Assembly (NCBI GenBank): GCA_963701855.1
Contig: CAVPBK010000001.1
Coordinates: 146,579 to 210,578 of the forward strand
From: Nitrospirota bacterium
Lineage (GTDB): Bacteria; Nitrospirota; Nitrospiria; Nitrospirales; Nitrospiraceae
DNA length: 64,000 bases
Direction of reading: 5' to 3'
This document shows, piece after piece, positions 19,660-63,982 of the stretch. The notes beneath the pieces were generated by a model, which had not been told where the DNA came from, ran no database searches, and was given only the letters and a program-made list of their open reading frames with translations. The translations under genes were made by a program, and so were the position numbers. The first letter of the stretch is position 1. Each line of letters opens with the position of its first letter.

Positions 19660-19770
19660 TATCTGGTCTGTCTCGTTTGTTTGGTTTGTCTTGTTTATTT
19701 GGTTGAACGAAACTAGCCGGATGAACCAAATTCAACCAGAGAAACAAAACAAACCAGATCAACCAGCTAA
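19660..19770. repeat. 9-nt-periodic palindromic repeat (inverted relative to the 32.5 kb and 63.9 kb copies)
   Basis: its reverse complement matches TTGATCTGGTTTGTTTTGTTT..CCGGTTAGTTTCGTTCAACCAA at 32.5 kb. Confidence 0.8.
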
Positions 19771-35073: not shown

Positions 35074-35298
35074 ATGGCGAACAACAGCTATACGGCAATT
35101 GTTGAAAAAGAAGGCGACCTATATGTGGCGCTCTGCCCAGAATTAGACGTGGCCAGCCAGGGAGCGACAATTGAAGGGGCAACATCCAATCTCAAGGAAG
35201 CGGTCGAATTGTTCCTTGAAACCGCTGACGCGGCGGAAATAAAACATCGGCTTCATACCGAAGTGTTCATCACACGCTTCGAAGCGGCGCATGGGTAA
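35074..35298 (+). CDS. hicB: HicB family antitoxin (short)
   Basis: YTAIVEKEGDLYVALCPELDVASQGATIEGA..NLKEAVELFLE. Confidence 0.9.
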   Translation: MANNSYTAIVEKEGDLYVALCPELDVASQGATIEGATSNLKEAVELFLETADAAEIKHRLHTEVFITRFEAAHG

Positions 35299-35512
35299 AC
35301 TGCGCGTTCTTTCCGGTCGAGATGCCTGCCGGATTCTTGAAAAACACGGCTTTCGCGAGGTCAGGCGACGCGGTAGTCATGTGGTGATGCAGCAGAGAAC
35401 CGACGCGGGGACCGTCACAGTCCCGATTCCTGATCACCCGGAACTCGCCATCGGCACACTCCTTTCGATCATCCGGCAGAGCGGCATCACCCGCACAGAA
35501 TTCGAGCTCTGA
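35291..35512 (+). CDS. hicA: HicA family toxin
   Basis: LEKHGFREVRRRGSHVVM..VPIPDHPELAIGTLLSIIRQSG. Confidence 0.92.
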   Translation: MGKLRVLSGRDACRILEKHGFREVRRRGSHVVMQQRTDAGTVTVPIPDHPELAIGTLLSIIRQSGITRTEFEL

Positions 35513-36112
35513 CACCCGACCGATCCCCTCCCCGCCATATCGGCTTCCGCACGTAAACGAGATCTGGCCCCGATTCCGAGCGGTGCCTGTCCCCCTTCTT
35601 GTTCCACGGCTGTTAAGCCAGCTTCGGAAGATGGCCGCTAAGCAAGGGAAGCCCTATCAGTCACTGATTCATGAACTCTCAGAAAAGGCCGCCTCCAAAG
35701 CCGCGTGAGAGCATCTTGCCCGCAGTCATTCATTGTTCTCGTTCATCTGGTTCATTTGGTTTCTTTGGTTCGCCTAGTGGGCTTGCCGGTCCGGCCAACA
35801 AGATAGACCAGAACCCACCAACCACGTCTCGCATCGAAGCCCTGGTCGCTCTCGCGTGAACGTAAAGATGCGAGGTCAAGCAAAGACCCCAGTGCTTGCC
35901 TTCGATGGGAAGGATAAGCCGTATATCAATCCGTGCAAATACTTGGATTTCACCATTCTGCTGAGTTGACACCCGCAAGTAGCAGGTCGTAGCCTGCTTT
36001 TGTTTCACTCCTCATTTATTACTTCTTGCAGATTCAGTCAAAGATGCGAAAGTTATGCTAATTAGAAAAATGCATAAGCGATGTTGGTTAGCAGGGGGAC
36101 GGGGACAATGAT

Positions 36113-39100
36113 ATGTGGGACGTAGGCTGGGTCAGACTGTTTCAACCTCTTATCTCTGTGGTGCGGGCAGCCGCGCAATACAAAACACGCCTGTCTAGGG
36201 AGCGACAAGCGGGACGTAGGTTGTTTGAATCGCATGAAGACAAGCTGATTGACGCTGAGTTCGATAAGACGATCGCTCGTCTGAGAGGAGAGGAAGTAGA
36301 AGATCGTTGGCTGAGTCAGATTCGGACATTCATTGAGCACCCACTCGTTACCCCTCAATTCCTTCGTGAACAAGATATAAGAGATTGGCTCGCTGAAGAT
36401 CGTGTTCGTTGCGATTTGAAGGCATTGGCGTCTGCTCGCCTCTTAGGTGTTGTTGAAGATGATAACAATGTGAAACAGCGGCTTATCCAAGCCCATTCAA
36501 GTATTTCAGGTAAGCCCAAGGCATTCGCCGTTGAAGCAATCGACAGCGTAGTGGCGATCCTTGTCGCTGGCTACAGGGCTAGCCTCAAGGGACCGTTGGC
36601 TCCCGTAGCAGGGCTGATCCAGGCAGGTGTCACAGAGCAGAGAGAGGGATTCGGAAGAGTGAGTCAGGAAATCTCTGGTGTTGGCGAGAGGCTCGATAAG
36701 CTTGGCCCAGACAACATAGTAGTAACAGCCCATACGAATCAAGCCACAAGAGAGCTAGACCGTATTATCAAGAGGCGTGGGCTTTTCGGTGATCGCGCAC
36801 GTGAAGAAATTCGCGTGCTAGTTCAGCAAATCGTGAAGGACGACCTCCGTTACGCGGATCAAGGATCAAACAAAACCTCTCCTGGGCGGCACGGCTTCAC
36901 ACTGCTGATGTTCAACATATCCCATCTGCAAGAAGCTACCTCGGTCAACTCCGCAAGCTTGATCCTGGATATGACACTCGAATTGTCAACGCATACATCA
37001 TGGAAAGGGAAGGCGATATTAATGGGGCGCTGCATCTGTTGCGAGATATCAATGATCCTGATGGGCATTCTGCTCTTTGGTCAGTCCTAAGTCGGACACG
37101 CGGTAAAGAGGCTGCGCTGCTTTCGTTTGAGGAGCAACCAGGGCATGAAGATGCTGGATTCCTAACTGGCTTAGGATGGTCAAACTTGGCATTTTCACTG
37201 GCCGAGATGGATGAGTGGGAGAAAGCATGTGATTTACTCGCAGGTGTTCAGGGGCATTTAGTTGAATGGCCAGACCTCGCATTTGTCGAAGGGGTTATCA
37301 ACGCGGCCATGCTACTTCCGCTCGAGGTGCGGGATATGGCTCTTCGAATGAATATCTTTCACCCACAAATACATACGATCAAAGGGCCTGACGTAGACCA
37401 GCGACGGGTTCGTGCCCATAGTTGTTTTGAGCAAGCCGAAAAACTCATGACCGAGATCGGCGAGGATAAACGGGCAGAGGTAGCGAAAGTCTGGTTGTTG
37501 TGGCTCAGACTCACGGACGAGAAAGAAGAGATTGCAGAGGCAGCGCGGGGGGAGTGCGAGAGGCCATGAAAGATCCTGCACGGGCTGTTGATTTTCTGCC
37601 TTTCGCCCTTGCATTCGGAGTTGATTTTGATAGGGGCCCACTCCAGCGTTACCTTATACAGCGGACGAAGATGGGTGGTTTGGAGGGACAGGAGGTTGTT
37701 GCCGAATTCCTTTTGGCCGAAACCACTATGACTGCCCGCGAGCACGCGAATTTTCTAGAGCGAGAAGAGGGTCGCCTGGCCATGGAAGTTCCAATAGCGA
37801 CTCTTGCGGGGAAAAGAATTGAGGCGCTGCTAGCAGATGGGCAGATTGCCCGATCAAAGCATGTGTTGGAAGAGCACAAGAGTGACTTCGCTGAAAATGA
37901 CTACGATCGTCTTCGTGCCATGATCCATAAGAAAGAGGGGGGAGATCTCAGAACCACATTTGAAGAGATTTATTCACGGACTGGACTATTGTTCGACTTG
38001 CAGAATCTCATTCAAGAAATTGGACAGGGTCGGGATTGGGTAACATTATGTCCGTTGTTAGAAAAGCTGTTCCAGCTTGAACGAACCAGGGACAACGCGA
38101 GTCGGCTTGTCGATTGCATGCAGCGTGATCCAAAGTCCGGATATGCTTCTATCGTTACATTCTTCCAAGAAAACCCGGGTGTGTCCGATTGGGGTGACGA
38201 TCTCAAGTCCGCCAACGCATGGGCACTTTTCTATATGGGTCGGTCAATAGAAGCTCGGGTAATAAATGACCAGCTTCTCAATACCCGAAACAATCCAGCT
38301 GATCTTCAGCTCGATATGAATCTTGCCATTCAGTCGGGAGACTGGGAGCGATTCCCAGCGATCGTCGATCGTGAATGGGACAAGCGAGATACATATGATG
38401 CCAATCTACTACTTCGCCTAGCGTTGTTAGCTGCTGAAGCTGATCCAATCACTAGTAGCCAGCAATCGAGCTTGCCAAGCTCGCGGCAAGCAAGGCACCG
38501 AATGATCCAAGCGTGCTCATGAATGCCTATTCGCTCACTGTTTCAATGGGGCGAGACCATGACGCAGATCCATCATGGATGGCTCGAGCGGTAGAGTTGT
38601 CCTCGGACAGTGGTCCGGTCCATCGAGTGGACATGCGTACTCTTGTTCAGGAGATGATGCCTGCCCACCGTGAGCGTGAACGATTAATCGAGCGCAACTT
38701 ACTCCAAGGGGAGGTGCCTCTGCATATGGCGGCAGCCGTGCTCCATATGCCACTGTCGCGGATACTCATTGACCTACCACGGCGGAATGCGGAACAGGGT
38801 GATGGCCGCCGCCGTGTGATTATTCCGATAGTTTCAGGGGCGCGACAGATCATCGGACTTCAACCGTCCTGGGTAGTGGGGCTAGATGTCACCTCCCTAA
38901 TGGTGCTGGGATTTTTGGGCCTCCTCCGAAACATCCTGAAAGCTTTCAACTGTATTATTCTTGCCCCTGAGACCATGGTTGTTCTTCTCAACGAACGGCG
39001 ACGTGTGCGCTTTCATCAACCATCGCGCATCAACAGCGCTGAAGAGATTCGTGATCTCATTGAAAAAGGTCAGCTAAGGCCTGTGACGTCATCTATGGAA

Positions 39101-40419
39101 CCACCACCGTGGCTTGTCGAGGAGGTGGGGCCGCACCTTGCTGAAATGCTTGAAGCTCGCCCATATCAATAATGGCCGCGTAGTTCGTCCTCGTCCTATA
39201 TACCAATTGCGCACATTTCTTGAGAAAGAAGCTGACCTGAAGGATTATGACAAACTAATTTTGTCGACCACGGACTGTAGGACGCCTTCTTGTTGAGGAC
39301 AGGGAAAATTAGTCGTGAGATATATGTGAAGGCTGAGGAAGTATCTGGTTGCACACGAGCAAAGGCCAGGAAGTCAACACGCTTCACAGCTTGCTTCCAT
39401 TTTCGGCGCTCCTCCTAATATCTCGATGACCTCGCCGCTACATACCTACAGCAAGCTGGGCTCCTCGCAGTCGGTGTGTCGTTGCGGTGTTAGATCTTTG
39501 GGTCCATCCATCCATGAGAGAAGAGCAGTCTGCTCTTGTGGTCGCGAACAGAGAGGGTGAGCGTCTTAATGAAAAAATAGACGACATTCGGTCTGTACTA
39601 CGAGAAGCCCTAGACAATAGTAAGGCCGTTTTTCTGCCGCGACATGATGTCGATGATGAGATGATCGGATCTCTGTCAGGATTTCTTGCCGACACTGGAC
39701 CGTGCGATATTGTCTGCATCGATGACCGATACCTGAATCGCCATGGTCTCCTCACAGACAAAAAGGGACGCAATGTGCCGATCACATGCACTCTGGATCT
39801 AATTAGTTACCTGGAAGCTCAGGGATTAATAGATGTCGAGAAGAAACGTGCGACCTTGCATCGACTCCGGGAGGCGGGCTTCGCTCTGGTACCGGTAGAC
39901 CCTGATGAGCTTGAGCAATTGTTGCGGGCAGCACTATTTGATCAGGACAACCAATTGATCGAAAGTTCCGAGCTAAGGGCTATCCGACAGCTCCTTATGC
40001 GCATTCGCAGCTCGGATATGGTCCAGTGCCCACTTGAGACACCCTATCTCACCAGGCTACATCTTGCTTGTATCCTCACAATTCGCTCCCTATGGCAAGA
40101 CGATAATATGCCTGTAGATCGGACAGTGGCTCTTACCAACTGGGTTTGGGTAAACGTGGTACCTTCACCAATTGACTGGGAGCGAACAGTTCACGACGGC
40201 ATTCCAGTTCGAGAACAATATGTCAGGCACCTGACCCCCCTGTTCAGTCCCATGGGACGCCTAAAACCAACGCGCTATAAGGCATTCTTAAAATGGATTG
40301 AGCAAGCTGTGTTGGAGCCATTGTTGCCAGCCAATGATAGCTTGATTGACGATCTGGCCAAGCAACTAAAGATTGAAATCGGCCAGTTAGTCGAGAGGTT
40401 GAGTGATGGGAGTAGATAG
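36113..40419 (+). pseudogene. large (~1,400 aa reconstructed) helical-repeat/TPR protein with two PIN-like segments; multiple frameshifts
   Basis: consecutive overlapping + strand ORFs join by frame changes near 36870, 37550, 38455, 39160 and 39280-39490; PIN-like starts VVGLDVTSLMVLGFLGLL and YLDDLAATYLQQAGLL, with a later VCIDDRYL. Confidence 0.65.
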
Positions 40420-42322
40420 AGCCCTGATCGCTAGACATTTGTGTGATCTTTTGCCGTCGCAACTCCAAGCGCGAGTATTAGGAGATCATGCTTTCATATC
40501 TCAGTATGGTCCGCTCTCGCGGACGATTGTGACCATCGGCGCTGGTATTTCCATTGATCAACTTGAGCTACTTGCTGCTGTGCGTCGTGTGCTTGCTGGC
40601 AAGGGCAATCAAAGTGTGAACGATGTCTCTGCTCGTCAGCTCCTCGTTACGGCTGATCGTCACACTGTCACTCTAAAGGGGGTGGAGCAGAAAGAGCTGA
40701 ACCAGATAGCTGATCTTCCCGACCTTATGGTTCTTTCGCCCAACCGTGATCACCGGATGTTCGCACTAAATCGTGTGATCGACAATCTTGGCCCAACAAC
40801 TCCTGACTTTTCCGCATTGCAGATGGCAGCTGAGGAGCGTGAACTCACTGACGCGGAAATTGCAGATCTATTAGAAGAGATCAGTACTGGACTCGAAGCT
40901 CACCGAGCAAGAATCGCGTTGGCGCACACCTCAGACCAAATCCAGCTCGACGATATCGTGCCAGATTCCCTTGCTTATTTTGAACGTTTCTGTGGACCGA
41001 ACCCACGTAACGCTATACCAGAGGAGTACCTGACTGGGATATTGCCTGCATACAGGCGACAATTGCTAGGCAGAAATATTGCGCGAGGGCTGGAGATCTG
41101 CCTGCTTGGTGCTCTGCGGGACGATCTTATGCCAGCTGCTTGGACTGGCGAGATAAATGATGACGACATATGGAAGGCACTAGAGACAATCGATACGCGG
41201 GCTAACCCATTTATGCTTCTTGGTGTACTAGATATCGCGATCACTCGTCAGCATGACGAGCGATACAAGACATTGGCAGCCGAGACGATGAGAAAACTTG
41301 TGCAGGAGCAATTGCCCCGTCCAGATGGTGTTGACTGCTATGAGATCCTCCCTCTGTTTGCACAGCTTGTCTTGGACCGCATTAACGTACTTGAAGACGG
41401 AGCCTTGTGTGAACCATTTTGGAAACGGATGTGTGCATGGATGCATGCTGGCTTACTAATGCAGTCAACTCTGCATATACAGATCAAATTGGAAGCGTTG
41501 CGCGGATGGGTTCACTCTAATCGAGATATGGCTGGAACCTATGCTCAGATGATTGATCTGCATCGTGAGCCGATGTATCGAGCAGGGGAAATCTCACATT
41601 CCCTACTTCGAGAAGAAATCATAGGTAGGCTCGTGATACTCAGGGTTAGACACCAGGCCGCTGGTCGCTCGGTACCACACTCTGAGGATGTTGACGCGGC
41701 TATGACACGCCTTGCCAGCAAGGGCTCCCCGCTAGGCTGGGCAATGCCAGGACCTCTAGATGGGCATCGTAGGCCAGCTGATCAGAAGGGGCGTGCCCTG
41801 TCAGAAACCGATGTTAGCCATGTTATGAAAGAGCTTTCAAAGGATCCTTATGGTGCAATCTGGTCCAAGTTGGCATACTTTTCTCAATGTTTTGACCTCG
41901 GTGAGAAGATCCTGGAACGGGCATGTGAGGCAAGTGCAAGTACAGCCTTGGATGTTGAGCAGTCGGAGAGAGAGAACAAACTCGGTCGGCTTTTCGATAT
42001 CTGTCTTATAGCTGCAGCCCACCGGAATAAAGATTTGGCGCGCTCAATCTCCGCCGCGGCCCTAGCGAGAGCACCGCGGGCAGTAGATGGAAGTTCGGCA
42101 ATGTCGATCCTTCATATCCTTTTACTCGCCAGCGCAGCATTTGAGCATGAGGACGAGTGGTCCTCATGGATTGGAGAACAACTCGTAGGTCTTGCTTACA
42201 ATCTACCGTCAGGTGAAGCAACTAGAGTCCTTCGGGAACATTTGAACGAAATCAAGAGAGTCCTACCGATTAGCTCACCAGTCTGTTCACGCGCAGACGC
42301 AGTGGCATCAGCAGCAAATTGA
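40406..42322 (+). CDS. large hypothetical protein (638 aa), coupled to the TPR-PIN-like gene
   Basis: intact ORF overlapping the upstream stop by 14 bp; no recognisable motif. Confidence 0.8.
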   Translation: MGVDRALIARHLCDLLPSQLQARVLGDHAFISQYGPLSRTIVTIGAGISIDQLELLAAVRRVLAGKGNQSVNDVSARQLLVTADRHTVTLKGVEQKELNQIADLPDLMVLSPNRDHRMFALNRVIDNLGPTTPDFSALQMAAEERELTDAEIADLLEEISTGLEAHRARIALAHTSDQIQLDDIVPDSLAYFERFCGPNPRNAIPEEYLTGILPAYRRQLLGRNIARGLEICLLGALRDDLMPAAWTGEINDDDIWKALETIDTRANPFMLLGVLDIAITRQHDERYKTLAAETMRKLVQEQLPRPDGVDCYEILPLFAQLVLDRINVLEDGALCEPFWKRMCAWMHAGLLMQSTLHIQIKLEALRGWVHSNRDMAGTYAQMIDLHREPMYRAGEISHSLLREEIIGRLVILRVRHQAAGRSVPHSEDVDAAMTRLASKGSPLGWAMPGPLDGHRRPADQKGRALSETDVSHVMKELSKDPYGAIWSKLAYFSQCFDLGEKILERACEASASTALDVEQSERENKLGRLFDICLIAAAHRNKDLARSISAAALARAPRAVDGSSAMSILHILLLASAAFEHEDEWSSWIGEQLVGLAYNLPSGEATRVLREHLNEIKRVLPISSPVCSRADAVASAAN

Positions 42323-42826
42323 GAGAAAGAAGCGCTGTCAGGAAATGTTTTCGACTCATTCAAACGGCGTCCACCAAATATATGAAGAAGATCTCACGAA
42401 ATTTCCCTATTCTTAATGGTCCTTCAAAAACTGTATTAGTGGACATTGCACAGCAAGGATCAGACGGGGCAGGTGTAAATGCTACCTACTACCGTGCTCA
42501 GCATGATGAATACTTAGATCTCTTGGATAAACTTGAAAGGGTGGGGTTCTTACGGAAAGAGCTGGATAGATATTGGGTGACTTTTCAGGGGCTAATCCTA
42601 CTCAAGGATGAGAAGTCCTATGCTCTCATTAGGAACTGCGAAAACATATTTGCGGTGCTCCAACAGCACTACAAATCTAAGCCAAAAACTAAGATACTGG
42701 TTGCGGACCTCGCGGGCATAGCCAAGCTATCTTTTGGTCAAACTGCTGAATGTTTGGGGTATATGTGTGAATTCCATTTTACGGGTAGCCATACTACTTT
42801 TTTTGACGATCCCGCCACCTCGTTTA

Positions 42827-43370
42827 ATGAAGCTCCCCGCAGCAAGCTGCGGGGTATCACAGAACTAAAACATCCGGAGCTGACGAAGATCTTCCTGCGG
42901 CTGCCCTTGCCGCTGCACGTACCGTTCGACAGTCTGCCAGTTTGCCCGTTCCCCTACCGTGGCCACGTAGTACCCATCGGTCCCAAACTCCCCGCCCCAC
43001 AGTACCCGCTTCACCGCGGGCTTTCGGCGAAAGATCTCCCGCGCCGTGATGCTCTTGAATATCTGCACAATCCGGCCTGGAGCCACTTTCGGATGTGCAC
43101 TGCAGAGCAGATGGATATGATTCTTGTCCGTCCCGATCGCCTCCATCTCGATCGGAAACCGTTCCGCGATCTCGGCCGCCGTCTCCTGGATAATCGTCGT
43201 CACCACCTCATCCAACAGCGATTTCCGGTATTTCACGGGAAAAACAATATGGTAGTGGATTTGCCACGCACAGTGCGCTCCCTTTCTGACTGCCTCGCTC
43301 CTCTGGTCCGCCATACTCCAGAGGGTACCAGAAAAGATTGTCCCCGTAGCAAGCTACGGGGAATCACAAG
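42827..43370 (-). mobile_element. IS200/IS605-family element (tnpA only)
   Basis: subterminal hairpins CCCCGCAGCAAGCTGCGGGG and CCCCGTAGCAAGCTACGGGG; 544-bp excision restores the host frame (ends +/-1). Confidence 0.9.
42865..43314 (-). CDS. tnpA: IS200 Y1 (HUH) transposase
   Basis: YHIVFPVKYR, NHIHLL (HUH), YVQRQ catalytic Tyr. Confidence 0.95.
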   Translation of the reverse strand: MADQRSEAVRKGAHCAWQIHYHIVFPVKYRKSLLDEVVTTIIQETAAEIAERFPIEMEAIGTDKNHIHLLCSAHPKVAPGRIVQIFKSITAREIFRRKPAVKRVLWGGEFGTDGYYVATVGERANWQTVERYVQRQGQPQEDLRQLRMF

Positions 43371-44020
43371 TTGAACCAGCTGAAACAATTCTAAGGTACA
43401 GCAGCTTCAAAGAGATTGTTGACGAAAGGATCTTGCTGAAGCAGAAACAAGAGCAAAAGACTTCGAGTCGCAACTATAAATTCTTGCCGAGTCCGCTTCA
43501 TAGTGAGGGGCAGGAAGATTTGCTTCAAGCGGCTGGTCTTGTTGGCTCCTTTAATGCTAATGACGCATGGAAGGCGATAAAGAGTGCTTACGATACAGAC
43601 AAGAAAGCATTTGGGAGAAGAATTCGGTTTGTTTCGGATGCATTCAAAAGAGAAATCATCTTCCGTGACGTTGCACAAGCATTTCTCTTGGCAGAAGCCG
43701 GATTCTCTAAGCCTGCGGTCATACTTGCTGGCAGTGTACTTGAGGAACTTCTGAGACTCTTCTTGGAATTCAAGAAGGTCACGCCAATAAAGGAGACATT
43801 CGATGGCTACATTAGGACATGTGTAGATAAGAGACTCCTCAAGTCCCCTGTCCATCAGTTGACTGATTCTGTCCGTCAATTTCGAAATCTAGTGCATTTG
43901 GAGGTGGAGAGCTCTTCAAAGCACACAATTTCGAAAGCAACTGCCAAAGGCGCTGTTTGACCCTCCCCTGATTTCATAGACACCTCCATAAGTGGGAGAA
44001 TGATGAAATCGGAGGTCAGC

Positions 44021-44317
44021 ATGCCAAAAATAACGCGACGTCAGTTTACTGACGCATTCAAGTCCGAGGCAGTCCGGCTCACGCGGGAATCGGGCCGGCC
44101 GGTGGCCCAGGTGGCTCGGGAACTTGGGATTTCTGACAATGTGCTGTATCGCTGGAGGAGCGAACAGCAACAGGTCGAATCCCAGGGCCGCACGCGCCAG
44201 GCGGTGCGGGTCGAGCAGGACGAGCTGACACGGCTCAAACGAGAAAACGAGACGCTGCGGAAGGAACGGGATTTTTTAAAACGTGCGGCGGCGTTCTTCG
44301 CGAGGGAATCCCAATGA
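44021..44317 (+). CDS. IS3 OrfA
   Basis: HTH (VAQVARELGIS..LYRW) and coiled coil; GGAGG RBS. Confidence 0.92.
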   Translation: MPKITRRQFTDAFKSEAVRLTRESGRPVAQVARELGISDNVLYRWRSEQQQVESQGRTRQAVRVEQDELTRLKRENETLRKERDFLKRAAAFFARESQ

Positions 44318-45177
44318 GATACCGCGCGATCCAGGAGCATGACCGTCGCTATCCGATCCGGTTGATGTGCCGCGCCCTCGCTGTATCGGCTGCGGGCTAT
44401 TACGCGTGGCGCATACGGCCCGAGAGTACCCGTTCGGTGTCCGCCCGGACCGTGCTCTCGGCCATCCGGGTGATCCATCGAGAGTCCCGCGAGACCTACG
44501 GCAGTCCCAGCATCTGGGACGCCTTGATCAAGCAGGGACACCGCATCGGTGAACATCGCGTGGCCCGGTTGATGCGCCAGGACGGCATCCGTGCCAAGAC
44601 CGTGAAGAAGTGGCGAGCCACGACGCAGTCCCATCATCGGTTCCCCGTGGCGGCGAACACCCTCAATCGCCAGTTCACGGTCGAGGCTCCAAATCGGGTA
44701 TGGGCCGGGGACCTCACCTACGTGTGGACTACCGAGGGCTGGCTCTACCTCGCCGTCATCCTCGACCTCTACTCGCGCACCGTGATTGGCTGGGCCATGG
44801 GCACCAGGCTCATCGGAGATCTGGCCGAACGTGCCCTCATCATGGCGCTGGCGAACCGGATACCCGCGACTGGGCTCCTGCACCATTCGGATCGCGGCAG
44901 TCAGTACGCCGCCACGAGCTACCAGCGTCTGCTCGGCGAGTATGGCATCATCACCAGCATGAGCCGCACCGGCAACTGCTGGGACAACGCCTGTGTCGAG
45001 AGCTTCTTCGGGACACTCAAGCGCGAGCTCGTCTACCATCGGCATTACGCAACCCGTGAAGACGCGAAGCAAGACATCTTCGAGTACATTGAGGTGTTCT
45101 ATAATCGGAAGCGCCGTCACTCGACCCTTGGCTATGTCTCCCCGGCCGAGTACGAAGCGAGGACGGCTGTGGCTTAA
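44314..45177 (+). CDS. IS3 OrfB DDE transposase
   Basis: WAGDLTY, HHSDRGSQY, DNACVESFFGTLKRE. Confidence 0.95.
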   Translation: MRYRAIQEHDRRYPIRLMCRALAVSAAGYYAWRIRPESTRSVSARTVLSAIRVIHRESRETYGSPSIWDALIKQGHRIGEHRVARLMRQDGIRAKTVKKWRATTQSHHRFPVAANTLNRQFTVEAPNRVWAGDLTYVWTTEGWLYLAVILDLYSRTVIGWAMGTRLIGDLAERALIMALANRIPATGLLHHSDRGSQYAATSYQRLLGEYGIITSMSRTGNCWDNACVESFFGTLKRELVYHRHYATREDAKQDIFEYIEVFYNRKRRHSTLGYVSPAEYEARTAVA

Positions 45178-45374
45178 CCCGGTGTCCACGGAATCGGGGG
45201 AAGGTCAGTTTCTGCTATCTTTACGATCGTGAATGACTTTGATCAGGACTGATGGTTGGTCTGGTCTATCTTGTTTGTCAATCTTCCCCCTAGTCAAAAA
45301 AAGAAAAGGCACCGGGAGTCTTTTTTCGCTACACAGCCCACCGTTTCTCTATCTTCTCCTTTGGGAGCGGGCTA

Positions 45375-46397
45375 GAGCGTTTTTGGTTTATGTCTTTACA
45401 TAGCCTGAGGATGCAAAGTAGCGCGTGCATTCGTCGGGTGTGAAGCGGTCAAGCAGCCTCCCGATTTCATTCCAGAGCGCGTCCACGATGCGCGTGGCGG
45501 CTTTGCGGAGCAGCGCTTTGAGTTTGGCGAACAGTTTTTCGATGGGATTCAGATCGGGGGAATACGGCGGGAGATAGCGGATGTGTGCCCCCACCGCCTC
45601 ATGCGCCTCTTTGACGCCCGCCACTTTGTGACTCCGTAAGTTGTCGGCGATGACGATGTCGCCCGAGTGCAGCGTCGGGCATAAGCACTCCTGGACATAT
45701 TTTAGAAAGAGGGCTCCCGTCATGGCGCCATCCGCCACCATCGGCGCGGAGATGTCATCATGACGCAGCCCAGCAACGAAGGTGGTGGTGTGCCAATGTC
45801 CGTGCGGTACAGAGGCAACGCACCGTTCGCCGCATGGGGCGCGTCCGTAGCGCCGCGCCATGTTCGTCGATGCCCCCGTTTCATCTAGAAAGACCAGTTT
45901 CGTGATGTCCAGAGCGGGTTGGGATGCCTGCCACTCACGCCGTGCGGCTTGCACGTCGGCGCGATCTCGCTCGCTGGCGTGTAGGGTTTTTTTTAAGCGT
46001 GAGCTTCCATTTGTCGAGTTGATGCCACAAGGCGGGTACCTTAATCGCAATCCCGTGTGCTGCCAATCGGGCACACATCTCCGCGAGTGTCAGATCTCCT
46101 GTTTCCTTCAGCCAAGCCCGCAGGGTCGGCTCCATCCCAGCCAACCGGGACTGCCGATGGCCTCCAATTGGTCGACTGCCACGCTGTCCCGTCTGCGTGA
46201 GTCGGTTCCGCACCTGATACACCCAGACCCGGCTGACTTCAAATCGCTCTGCAATGGCCGTCGGACGATCCCCACGCTCCAGTGCTCGCAACACCCGGTC
46301 CCGTAGATCCTGCGAATAGGCATCCATCCTGTTACCTCCATCAAGAACACAATGGAGGGTATCCTACAGAATGTATACACTTAAATCAAAACTGCTC
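45375..46397 (-). mobile_element. IS630-family insertion sequence
   Basis: imperfect TIRs GAGCGTTTTTGGTTTA / GAGCAGTTTTGATTTA flanked by TA (CTAG context). Confidence 0.88.
45388..46327 (-). CDS. IS630 transposase (two ORFs joined by a probable -1 frameshift)
   Basis: MDAYSQDLRDRV HTH; A8 run at 45987-45994; FLDET, IADNL, LPPYSPDLNPIE. Confidence 0.9.
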
Positions 46398-46610: not shown

Positions 46611-46669
46611 TTCTGAGCCCGCGCGTCCGTGGCGAATTACGATTCGCTCGCAAGCCGAGAGCTCTTGCT

Positions 46670-47119
46670 CTATTGAAAGAGCAACGAGACTGAGCCATCC
46701 TTTGCGACCTTGGCGATAAACGGTTTCGTGTGGTTCTTCAGAAACCGGGTGATGCGGGGGAGTGCCTTCACGAAGATCTCTGCCATTTCTTCGCCTTGTA
46801 GATCACCTGATGTGAGGATAAATGCCGCTACGCCTGCCTTCATGAGCGCCAGCCGTTCAACGTGTCGATACCGGATGCGATGGTCTTTGGTCAGGACAAT
46901 CCAGCCGCGCTGCCCGGCCTCGACGAGCCAGTCTTCATCCTTGGCATCGGGAGAAAAGTGATCGTCGTGGATGTGGAGCGTGGCGCCAGCCTGGCGGAGC
47001 GCTGTGGCGACACGGTTCTTCCCCAGAGAACGATCAAGGAAGAAGACGGGCGCGTCAGGCGGCTTCGACGGAGAGTTCGCACCTGATGGCTTCTTCGATT
47101 TCGAGCCGCCGCCGTCCAT
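46670..47119 (-). CDS. VapC45-like PIN toxin
   Basis: FFLDRSLG, DAKDEDWL..GWIVLTKDHRIRY; overlaps the DUF433 gene; start uncertain. Confidence 0.85.
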   Translation of the reverse strand: MDGGGSKSKKPSGANSPSKPPDAPVFFLDRSLGKNRVATALRQAGATLHIHDDHFSPDAKDEDWLVEAGQRGWIVLTKDHRIRYRHVERLALMKAGVAAFILTSGDLQGEEMAEIFVKALPRITRFLKNHTKPFIAKVAKDGSVSLLFQ

Positions 47120-47774
47120 AATCGTCTGCCAAGTCGTCCACGGATTCGCCGGCCTTGTAGCGTTCCGCGATCACAGCCGTTGGAATACCGGTGCCTGCCA
47201 GCACAGGCCGGCCAAAGGATACTTGTGGATCAATGACGACGGCCCTGGGCTCTTCTTGGAGGTCGCGTTTCCGCGTGAACGGATACAGTCTGACTGGGAT
47301 GCCCTTGAGATCTCGTTCGATTCGATGGAGGTGTGCCTGGAGGACTTCTTGGATGGCCAATTGTCCTTCTTGAGAGATGTTGATCAATTGACTGAATTTC
47401 TTGATGAAGAGGTTCAATCCATCGGTGTCGAATTCCTGGTCGGCCAAGGGATGTCTCGAAGGAAATTGTTTCGAGAGGTAGTTCATCGCAGTTTTGACTT
47501 TTTCCAATGGGATCTCATGCTTGCGGCGAATGGCATCGAGAACGTGGATCTCTACGAGATTCATGAAGGAGAGCAACTTCACGGCTGGATCGGGCACCTG
47601 GATGATTGGTCTGGAGAAGCGCATGCCGGTGGTGCTGCGGTAATGCCGGCCTGAAACCCAGTCTCGGATGGTCGTGCGTGGAATGCGCAGATAATGTGCG
47701 GCTTCCATGACGCCATAGGAAGCTACTTCTCGCACATCAAAGTGTTTGTCGAACGCTATCGCCTTCTGTTTCAT
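47055..47774 (-). CDS. DUF433 / VapB45-like antitoxin
   Basis: N-terminal HTH (EAAHYLRIPRTTIRDW), LSFMNLVE, IDPQVSFGRPV..AGESVDDLADDY. Confidence 0.88.
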   Translation of the reverse strand: MKQKAIAFDKHFDVREVASYGVMEAAHYLRIPRTTIRDWVSGRHYRSTTGMRFSRPIIQVPDPAVKLLSFMNLVEIHVLDAIRRKHEIPLEKVKTAMNYLSKQFPSRHPLADQEFDTDGLNLFIKKFSQLINISQEGQLAIQEVLQAHLHRIERDLKGIPVRLYPFTRKRDLQEEPRAVVIDPQVSFGRPVLAGTGIPTAVIAERYKAGESVDDLADDYGRRRLEIEEAIRCELSVEAA

Positions 47775-47865
47775 ACGATTGGTAGGCACTGTATCGCTCT
47801 CTTCATGACCGGTCAAGTAGCGGGAAGCTGAATGCAAGGGATCGGGAGTCTTTTCTCGCCGCAAC

Positions 47866-48054
47866 GACCAGACTGTCCTTCACTGCGCACGTCAAACGAG
47901 CACGCTTTACAATGCTCCCTCCAAGCTCGCTCGTCACCTCTCAGGGATGGGGGCTGACTGATCTTCCACTGCGCGCGTCCAACGAGGGCCTTCTCAGGCC
48001 GCGCGTTGCGCGAGCACAGAAGATCATCAGGCTCCATCCCTCTTCTTCTTGCTA
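47866..48054 (+). repeat. palindromic element, partial core plus full core copy C
   Basis: GGATGGGGGCTGACTGATCTTC-CACTGCGCGCGTCCAACGAG..GCGCGTTGCGCGAGCACA-GAAGATCATCAGGCTCCATCC. Confidence 0.75.
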
Positions 48055-50175: not shown

Positions 50176-50250
50176 TTCTTCTGGTCTCTCTGGTTTATCC
50201 GGTTAGTCTGGTTCAACCAACAAACGAGACAATGCATATAAACCAGATCA
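50176..50250. repeat. 9-nt-periodic palindromic repeat
   Basis: TCTGGTCTCTCTGGTTTATCCGGTTAGTCTGGTTCAACCAACAAACGAGAC. Confidence 0.7.
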
Positions 50251-63864: not shown

Positions 63865-63982
63865 TGTCTGTCTGGTTCATCTGGTCTATCTCGTTGATCT
63901 GGTTTGTTTTGTTTATTTGGTTCATCTGGTTAGTTTCGTTCAACCAAAAACCAGAGAGACCAGAGAGACAAAACAGACTAGC
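63865..63982. repeat. 9-nt-periodic palindromic repeat
   Basis: TCTGGTTCATCTGGTCTATCTCGTTGATCTGGTTTG..GGTTAGTTTCGTTCAACCAAAAACCAGAGAGACCAGA. Confidence 0.8.

Follow-up and report, generated by a model that had tools for sequence, protein, structure and literature searches.

A double-PIN gene pair in a Nitrospirota genome, probably a branch of the TPR-GreA/B-C-PIN defence proteins

The final 64 kb of a Nitrospirota bacterium contig (C1; CAVPBK010000001.1, positions 146,579 to 210,578; this whole stretch of 64,000 nucleotides is called the window here) carries at 36113-45252 three genes in one orientation, which an initial annotation had proposed as an undescribed three-gene anti-phage system. 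Genes 1 and 2 are one unit, encoded in different relatives either as two genes or as one. The best explanation, which we consider fairly probable, is that they are the two subunits of a defence protein derived from the TGP (TPR-GreA/B-C-PIN) systems defined by Kaur et al. (2021; PMC8195603), the protein being produced either as a pair of chains with coupled translation or as a single chain of ~2,060 amino acids (aa). The observations that support this are the shared architecture, fusion and fission of the two genes, the PIN fold, conserved acidic residues, defence-rich neighbours and the swapping of N-terminal effector domains. Gene 3 seems to be a passenger unrelated to the pair and has been disrupted by mobile elements.

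An intact version of the same block (window 35962-45279) is present at 93% nucleotide identity in a metagenome contig, L046, with genes of 1,438, 639 and 357 aa, no insertion sequences (IS) and flanks that differ from those of the window. Residue numbering follows L046; window coordinates are collected in Table 1.

Table 1. Features of the three-gene block and its flanks, in window coordinates
Feature	Position	Strand	Remarks
Gene 1 (subunit A)	36113..40419	+	in pieces, frameshifted; helical N-domain, TPR, HTH (helix-turn-helix), double PIN, helical tail
Helical N-terminal domain, ~235 aa	36113..36817	+	first helix hydrophobic; slot held by TIR, caspase or nucleosidase in some relatives
TPR-like helical repeats, bounds approximate	36820..38640	+	weak TPR Pfam matches in window and relatives
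HTH_upst_double_PIN (PF24407)	38648..38845	+	E 5e-19, 68.8 bits, Pfam cut-off 27
PIN repeat 1, bounds approximate	38864..39375	+	conserved D927, E963, RxRFHQPS loop; strand-4 aspartate lacking
Cluster of 11 single-base insertions relative to L046	39158..39490	+	probable local sequence error
PIN repeat 2, bounds approximate	39410..39880	+	D1104, D1202-D1203-R1204, D1227
Gene 2 (subunit B), 639 aa	40403..42322	+	intact; overlaps gene 1 stop; fused to gene 1 in many relatives
Beta-rich N-terminal domain of gene 2	40526..40714	+	region matched by PF24388 (Permuted_GreAB-C) in relatives
Gene 3, first piece	42382..42826	+	winged-helix-like region; HTH_45 weak, E 0.044
IS200/IS605-type element in gene 3	42827..43370	-	tnpA 42865-43314
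Gene 3, second piece	43371..43958	+	HEPN-like RQFRNLVH at 43874-43897
IS3-family element	43959..45207	+	GTT target duplication; 100% identical to contig C6 copy; severs gene 3 end
Gene 3, final codons	45211..45252	+	stranded past IS3
HicB-like + HicA pair	35074..35512	+	outside the L046-shared block
IS630-type transposase reading frames	45388..46327	-	outside the L046-shared block
DUF433 + PIN_10 toxin-antitoxin-like pair	46670..47864	-	outside the L046-shared block

One unit in one gene or two

The product of gene 1 had been described as ~1,400 aa of helical repeats followed by two PIN-like segments, and this description holds: the L046 protein has 1,438 aa, and the PIN motifs begin at 38873 (VVGLDVTS), 39422 (LDDLAATYLQ) and 39709 (IVCIDDR). 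The sensor-RNase layout suggested for it is also borne out. The repeats give weak but repeated TPR matches (E 0.011-0.019 against a designed TPR), and a wide fold search with the predicted model of residues 835-1438 (pLDDT, a model confidence score, 90.9) placed PIN chains on top, the best with Z 8.3, a root-mean-square deviation of 3.3 and 123 aligned residues. The two PIN repeats align with each other at an hhalign probability of 94%, and PF24407, the domain named for its place upstream of a double PIN, scores above its cut-off. PF20698, the PIN of TGP proteins, matches the window at E 0.084 and relatives at 5e-6 to 2e-13, passing the cut-off in two of them (L021, L027), in keeping with the kinship to TGP systems that had been proposed.

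The N-terminal 235 aa are of the window type in 180 of the 210 long relatives; the best atlas match of this domain, 0.78, points to no family. Other relatives begin instead with TIR or SEFIR (six proteins), DUF4062, DUF676, a nucleosidase or a caspase. The last two were identified by a scan, and the remaining names are those that we take to belong to the Pfam accessions concerned. The nearest named relatives of gene 1 (P0280, P0282) are labelled Nitrospira sp.

Gene 2 begins before the stop codon of gene 1, as first noted. Its predicted fold (pLDDT 93.6) comprises a small beta domain (residues 42-104) and then ~520 helical residues. The idea that it encodes an unknown dedicated partner has to be abandoned: among its relatives (806 representatives at E<=0.001; 22 genome loci) it is in many cases the C-terminal third of a single ~2,060-aa protein. 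Of 252 proteins with the full PIN module, 93 are fused in this way, 147 end shortly after the module and 12 do neither. On a tree of 231 distinct rows, from which the 12 unclassed proteins were omitted, a minimum of 17 changes of state is counted, 13 of them required by well-supported branches, and even forms that are 91% identical differ in state; the split label here derives from protein length, and some such proteins may be products of contig edges or errors. The split two-gene form is nevertheless real, because the frame offset at the junction is identical in 16 of 17 split loci, the stop is overlapped in 16 of 17, and complete plasmids from cultured Agrobacterium and Methylophaga carry it too. 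The expectation that the three genes would be conserved neighbours is upheld for genes 1 and 2, which adjoin or fuse, and not for gene 3, which follows gene 2 in only 1 of 33 other loci.

Among eight loci reached via gene 1, gene 2 adjoins in five; the other three are cyanobacterial, with an 870-aa tail that the gene 2 profile does not match. These plasmid-borne versions (L066, L067, L068) each consist of one protein, 2,126-2,216 aa long, in which the double PIN precedes the tail; that of L066 has a caspase N-terminus and is located after a multiubiquitin, ThiF and DUF6527 operon. Two further loci have altered forms: in one (L004: 1365-11371) gene 2 follows a 106-aa remnant of gene 1, downstream of a helicase and an Hsp70-like gene, and in the other (L070: 5404-14004; G337) gene 1 is split in three by two similar inserted elements.

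The unit is rare in its family and phylum. Gene 2 was found in 3 of 201 family genomes, and 5 of 301 genomes of the phylum gave a PF24407 match above cut-off, the window's own genome being included in both counts. No close copy of the cassette appeared in 60 related genomes, where the IS alone matched. Ten plasmid records match the unit; searches of phage records and IMG/VR yielded no relatives.

The double PIN and a candidate mechanism

How might two PIN repeats be arranged? In the fold search, 32 of the 50 rows begin within strand 1 of repeat 1 (model residue 80-89) and run to the end of repeat 2 (389-461), and none of the 50 is limited to a single repeat. Since a rigid match to a single PIN (100-130 residues at 3-4 Å) extends across both repeats, the opening half of repeat 1 and the closing half of repeat 2 appear to form one domain in the model, a reading drawn from the residue ranges of the fold search, not from model coordinates. 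The conservation pattern in 239 sequences fits a composite PIN site: D927 (98%), E963 (92%), D1202 (97%), D1203 (99%), D1227 (97%) and Q971-P972 (100%) are strongly kept, D1104 (84%) and E1136 (59%) are weaker, and an aspartate is absent at 1027. E1006, 91% conserved, sits awkwardly with an intertwined model. Coevolution leans toward the swap (L952-A1170, L952-F1172, R991-D1126 and V1025-L1106) without settling it, an unswapped pair, P1100-I1198, being present too. Among the top 100 pairs of a pseudo-likelihood run, 33 were of the swapped type and 22 of the unswapped type, p 0.09 with a cut point picked after the first run; a mean-field run gave a mixed outcome. On the predicted model, intertwining of the two repeats seems the somewhat likelier arrangement. 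Two cases offer analogies only: in the SMG5-SMG6 composite PIN two PINs complete one active site (PMC12923823), and DS-3 of DefensePredictor is, in the portion of PMC13092281 consulted, a validated defence protein with a PIN assembled from separated parts.

A mechanism consistent with these features can be sketched. At rest, the complex would be auto-inhibited. The sensor of an invader signal could be the TPR array or else the rapidly changing beta domain with which subunit B starts, and this beta domain might dock on RNA polymerase as proposed for TGP; this docking is the weakest step of the mechanism and, argued from analogy, is doubtful. The signal would then unlock a single working PIN RNase site formed by the double PIN, and engagement of the N-terminal domain would stop or kill the infected cell as an abortive back-up. 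From analogy we infer the phage trigger, the RNA target and cell death through the N-terminal domain. Gene 3 would be a separate HEPN-like effector, acquired by the cassette of this lineage and later broken by two IS. A bolder version would make the unit a widespread immune family with a composite RNase site of intertwined PINs, gated by the TPR array and by a 639-aa subunit whose permuted GreA-like domain reads RNA polymerase, and with the helical N-terminal domain as default cell-death effector; taken as a whole, we regard this as unlikely.

Kinship with TGP proteins and the defence neighbourhood

The unit resembles TGP proteins in its TPR array ahead of a PF20698-type PIN, in its variable N-terminal effectors (TIR, PNPase, peptidase and nuclease in TGP) and in having few conserved neighbours. 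It differs in that the PIN is doubled, the interval from TPR to PIN gave no GreA/B-C match, and a further 639 aa follow as a second subunit or a fused tail, TGP being mostly standalone genes; the total size is ~2,060 aa here and ~1,100-1,400 in TGP. As the working appears TGP-like, but two PIN repeats and a second subunit or tail take the place of one PIN in a standalone protein, the unit is best regarded as a variant branch, and one already tagged by Pfam. The models PF24407 and PF24388, which presumably come from the Burroughs and Aravind group, cover parts of exactly this architecture, although as domain labels only, so that the combination can no longer be called undescribed. No paper testing the double-PIN branch was found in the literature, and the likely source papers may already describe the architecture. 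In the part of the PMC8195603 tables examined there are TPR+PIN rows without GreA/B-C, one TM+SIR2+TPR+PIN+PIN+TM protein (TM, transmembrane) of 2,304 aa, and HEPN domains beside or fused to TGP proteins; the two-gene form was not seen in that part.

One experimentally tested member of the TGP type is Agp, which protects against T5; in the sections consulted of its description (10.1101/2024.11.07.622273), Bab/Agp of E. coli ECOR25 causes abortive infection against T5, abolished by mutations in GreA/B-C or PIN, of which the PIN mutant is unstable, and activity of the PIN alone is not demonstrated in those sections. Agp differs from the present unit in its size (1,094 aa), single PIN and amyloid-motif signalling to a separate Bell-domain protein; such an upstream gene was not seen here. 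Adt1 (TPR-DUF3800) was set aside as belonging, from the part of its description available, to a different nuclease family.

The initial annotation saw no GreA/B-C domain. This is correct for the usual place, where neither Pfam nor a GreA profile gave a match in gene 1 (the profile is insensitive, having also missed a GreA-like stretch recognised by eye in L010), and less certain elsewhere, in that Pfam's permuted version finds matches in relatives where gene 2 starts. Among 67 proteins scanned, PF24388 matches reach 4e-12, with L027 above the cut-off at 45.9 bits, L019 just below it at 26.8 and seven others weak; the label is unconfirmed. The L010 sequence (L010 and L011: 4490-11905; also P0022) is an observation in its own right: an Acidobacteriota protein of 2,471 aa with a full PF20698 PIN at 988-1126 (7e-18), preceded by the GreA-like stretch read by eye and followed by the double-PIN and gene 2 module, for three PIN units in total; it resembles a TGP protein linked to the present unit.

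The defence context that had been predicted is present. The neighbour set comprised 125 proteins from 29 loci, 121 of them hand-picked from 181 open reading frames (ORFs) within 3 kb and 4 more distant, with overlapping and transposase-like ORFs mostly dropped; the control was 132 proteins from the 269 ORFs of G144, a genome with a related gene 2. PADLOC matches at E<=1e-30 were obtained for 20 of 125 neighbours vs 6 of 132 controls (p 0.003), and 13 of the 29 loci have a strong match, to restriction-modification types I, II, III and IIG, BREX, SoFic, HEC-01 and others. We take this as moderate support, because related loci are not independent observations and the controls come from a single genome. 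The Methylophaga pair is immediately preceded (L065: 1046-7568) by a WYL gene and four co-oriented genes without annotation (266, 953, 458 and 184 aa), with no PADLOC match at 1e-10, possibly a further defence operon.

Several results weigh against a TGP-derived defence protein. The best PIN score of the fold search is close to the background quoted for the tool, and Foldseek of the gene 1 model against PDB gave nothing at E<=0.001. On the window's own gene 2, PF24388 scores E 0.55 (12.6 bits); GreA-C profiles, natural and permuted, gave no match to gene 2, with scores within the shuffled range; and the SP motif is present in none of 76 rows. The beta domain is highly variable, and its kinship to GreA, which rests on the Pfam name, could not be confirmed, our own tests being unsupportive. 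The TGP part of the L010 protein did not align with the gene 1 profile (1.3%), and the by-eye match before its PIN was dropped. The PADLOC enrichment is weak at E<=1e-10 (25 of 125 vs 15 of 132, p 0.06); the stricter cut was picked afterwards, from hand-picked neighbours and a single control genome. PADLOC-DB 2.0 recognised none of eight window pieces, no relevant NCBIfam model matches the unit, and anti-phage function of the double-PIN branch is a probability drawn from analogy.

Other searches returned little. The gene 2 model had nothing at E<=0.001 by Foldseek against PDB and viral structures, and VIA gave only generic helical repeats for residues 460-639 (best Z 9.6), with the remainder barely covered; sequence profiles from PDB gave no useful match to gene 2 or gene 3. 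PADLOC matched 1 of 15 intact relatives, weakly, the extra N-terminus of the L010 protein resembling LmuA, and gave nothing at 1e-10 for gene 3 of L046.

Gene 3, the flanks and alternative explanations

Two IS insertions divide gene 3 into three pieces. The winged-helix N-terminus and RQFRNLVH motif first noted are both found, the former as a weak match. In 74 sequences of the C-terminal domain E273, E274, R320, N321 and H324 are invariant and R317 is at least 90% conserved; R317 and H324 are spaced by six, so that an Rx4-6H motif with an upstream glutamate is present. The domain is thus HEPN-like by motif, as proposed, and not by curated match. It shares invariant ExxL-type glutamates and an RNxxH motif with DUF4145/Ymh-type HEPN domains and differs from them in reaching no curated cut-off: DUF4145 matches are weak and confined to 10 of 74 sequences (best E 0.0027), the atlas leads to DUF4145 and Ymh clusters score 0.84-0.86, all below 0.9, and Pfam contains no model for the family itself. 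Five genomes (L051-L055) gave weak gene 3 matches that were taken as probable noise. Compared with either of the genome's two other full copies, the IS200 copy at 42865-43314 has changes at four sites, one of them from Trp to Gly in what is presumably the EFWTDGYY motif of the IS200 transposase.

The AT-rich character of the block is also apparent: GC is 0.51 in genes 1 and 2 and 0.43-0.45 in gene 3, vs a genome mean of 0.556, and values as low as 0.51 are found in 1.3% of 709 6-kb genome windows. All three IS elements reported in or beside the block are present (IS200, IS3 and IS630-type transposases), two of them inside gene 3. Of the two flanking toxin-antitoxin pairs, Pfam confirms HicA (2e-18), DUF433 (4e-12) and PIN_10 (2e-22); HicB is a weak match only (E 0.006-0.035). 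The DUF433/PIN_10 pair (window 46641-47528; L050: 1438-3462) also occurs, 88% identical, behind a gene 3 relative in G135, so it may mark a genus-level exchange spot for defence cargo. In addition, two dispersed repeat families from the L046 flank, ~85 and ~165 bases long, have 199 and 98 blastn matches in the genome (for example window 19661-19722, 50180-50247, 63900-63981 and 47878-48040).

Could gene 3 nevertheless be the third component of a system confined to one Nitrospira-like lineage, a HEPN effector recruited and activated by genes 1 and 2? L046 holds all three genes intact and co-oriented in one block between flanks unlike the window's; close relatives of gene 3 exist at 64-94% identity, their neighbours not being visible; and HEPN domains accompany TGP proteins in the part of the PMC8195603 tables noted above. 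But the gene 3 profile matches only one of 33 other gene 1/2 loci, L046 itself, although in 30 of these loci the sequence extends 1.2 kb or more downstream; G144, whose gene 2 is 62% identical, has an IS-like pair in gene 3's place; and among the 201 family genomes the gene 2 and gene 3 match lists overlap in the window's own genome only. The GC of gene 3 is far below that of genes 1 and 2, and its HEPN-like domain is found behind many different N-termini (in G135 the relative follows a restriction-specificity-like ORF, read by eye). The three-gene proposal is therefore quite improbable. So, to a similar degree, is an addiction module resembling toxin-antitoxin pairs, in which gene 2 would restrain the gene 1 PIN RNase and the pair would stabilise islands or plasmids. 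Its overlapping two-gene layout, its ten plasmid records and the lack of an evident catalytic motif in gene 2 suit such a role; repeated fusion into a single chain, however, removes the differential decay that addiction needs, and 600 aa of TPR with swappable TIR, caspase and nucleosidase N-termini are typical of sensor-effector immunity.

The state of this copy is a separate question. Compared with G144, gene 1 has nine frameshifts and no internal stops. Alignment with L046 shows bases missing at 36862-36875 (four), 37552 (one) and 38460 (one), besides the insertion cluster of Table 1; several other plus-one/minus-one pairs offset each other and probably reflect alignment noise, and the single stop counted is the natural end, displaced five codons. 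Local consensus error seems the more likely cause, because the insertions cluster and the ratio of synonymous to non-synonymous codon differences from L046 (122:94) is like that of intact gene 2 (74:60). That the whole cassette is instead a decaying relic with genuine frameshifts is the lesser possibility, though an appreciable one: elsewhere the genome is clean (3 frameshift-like splits among 121 orthologues, or 42,250 codons, from the 269 G144 ORFs tried), its IS copies align gap-free, adjoining gene 3 is genuinely broken, twice, and three deletion sites fall outside the cluster. Against decay stand the 11 single-base insertions of mixed letters within 330 bp, with few substitutions there, the codon ratio just given, the lack of internal nonsense changes and the preservation of the catalytic codons.

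As the copy in the window is damaged or mis-assembled, the value of the finding lies in the family. If derived from TGP as we suppose, the unit represents a two-subunit branch of TGP-type immunity that can be put to the test; PADLOC and NCBIfam do not recognise it, and cultured bacteria hold intact copies. An intertwined PIN, if true, would be a new way of building and locking a defence RNase, and the naturally split and fused forms may allow sensing to be separated from cutting, a question left open by the work on Agp.

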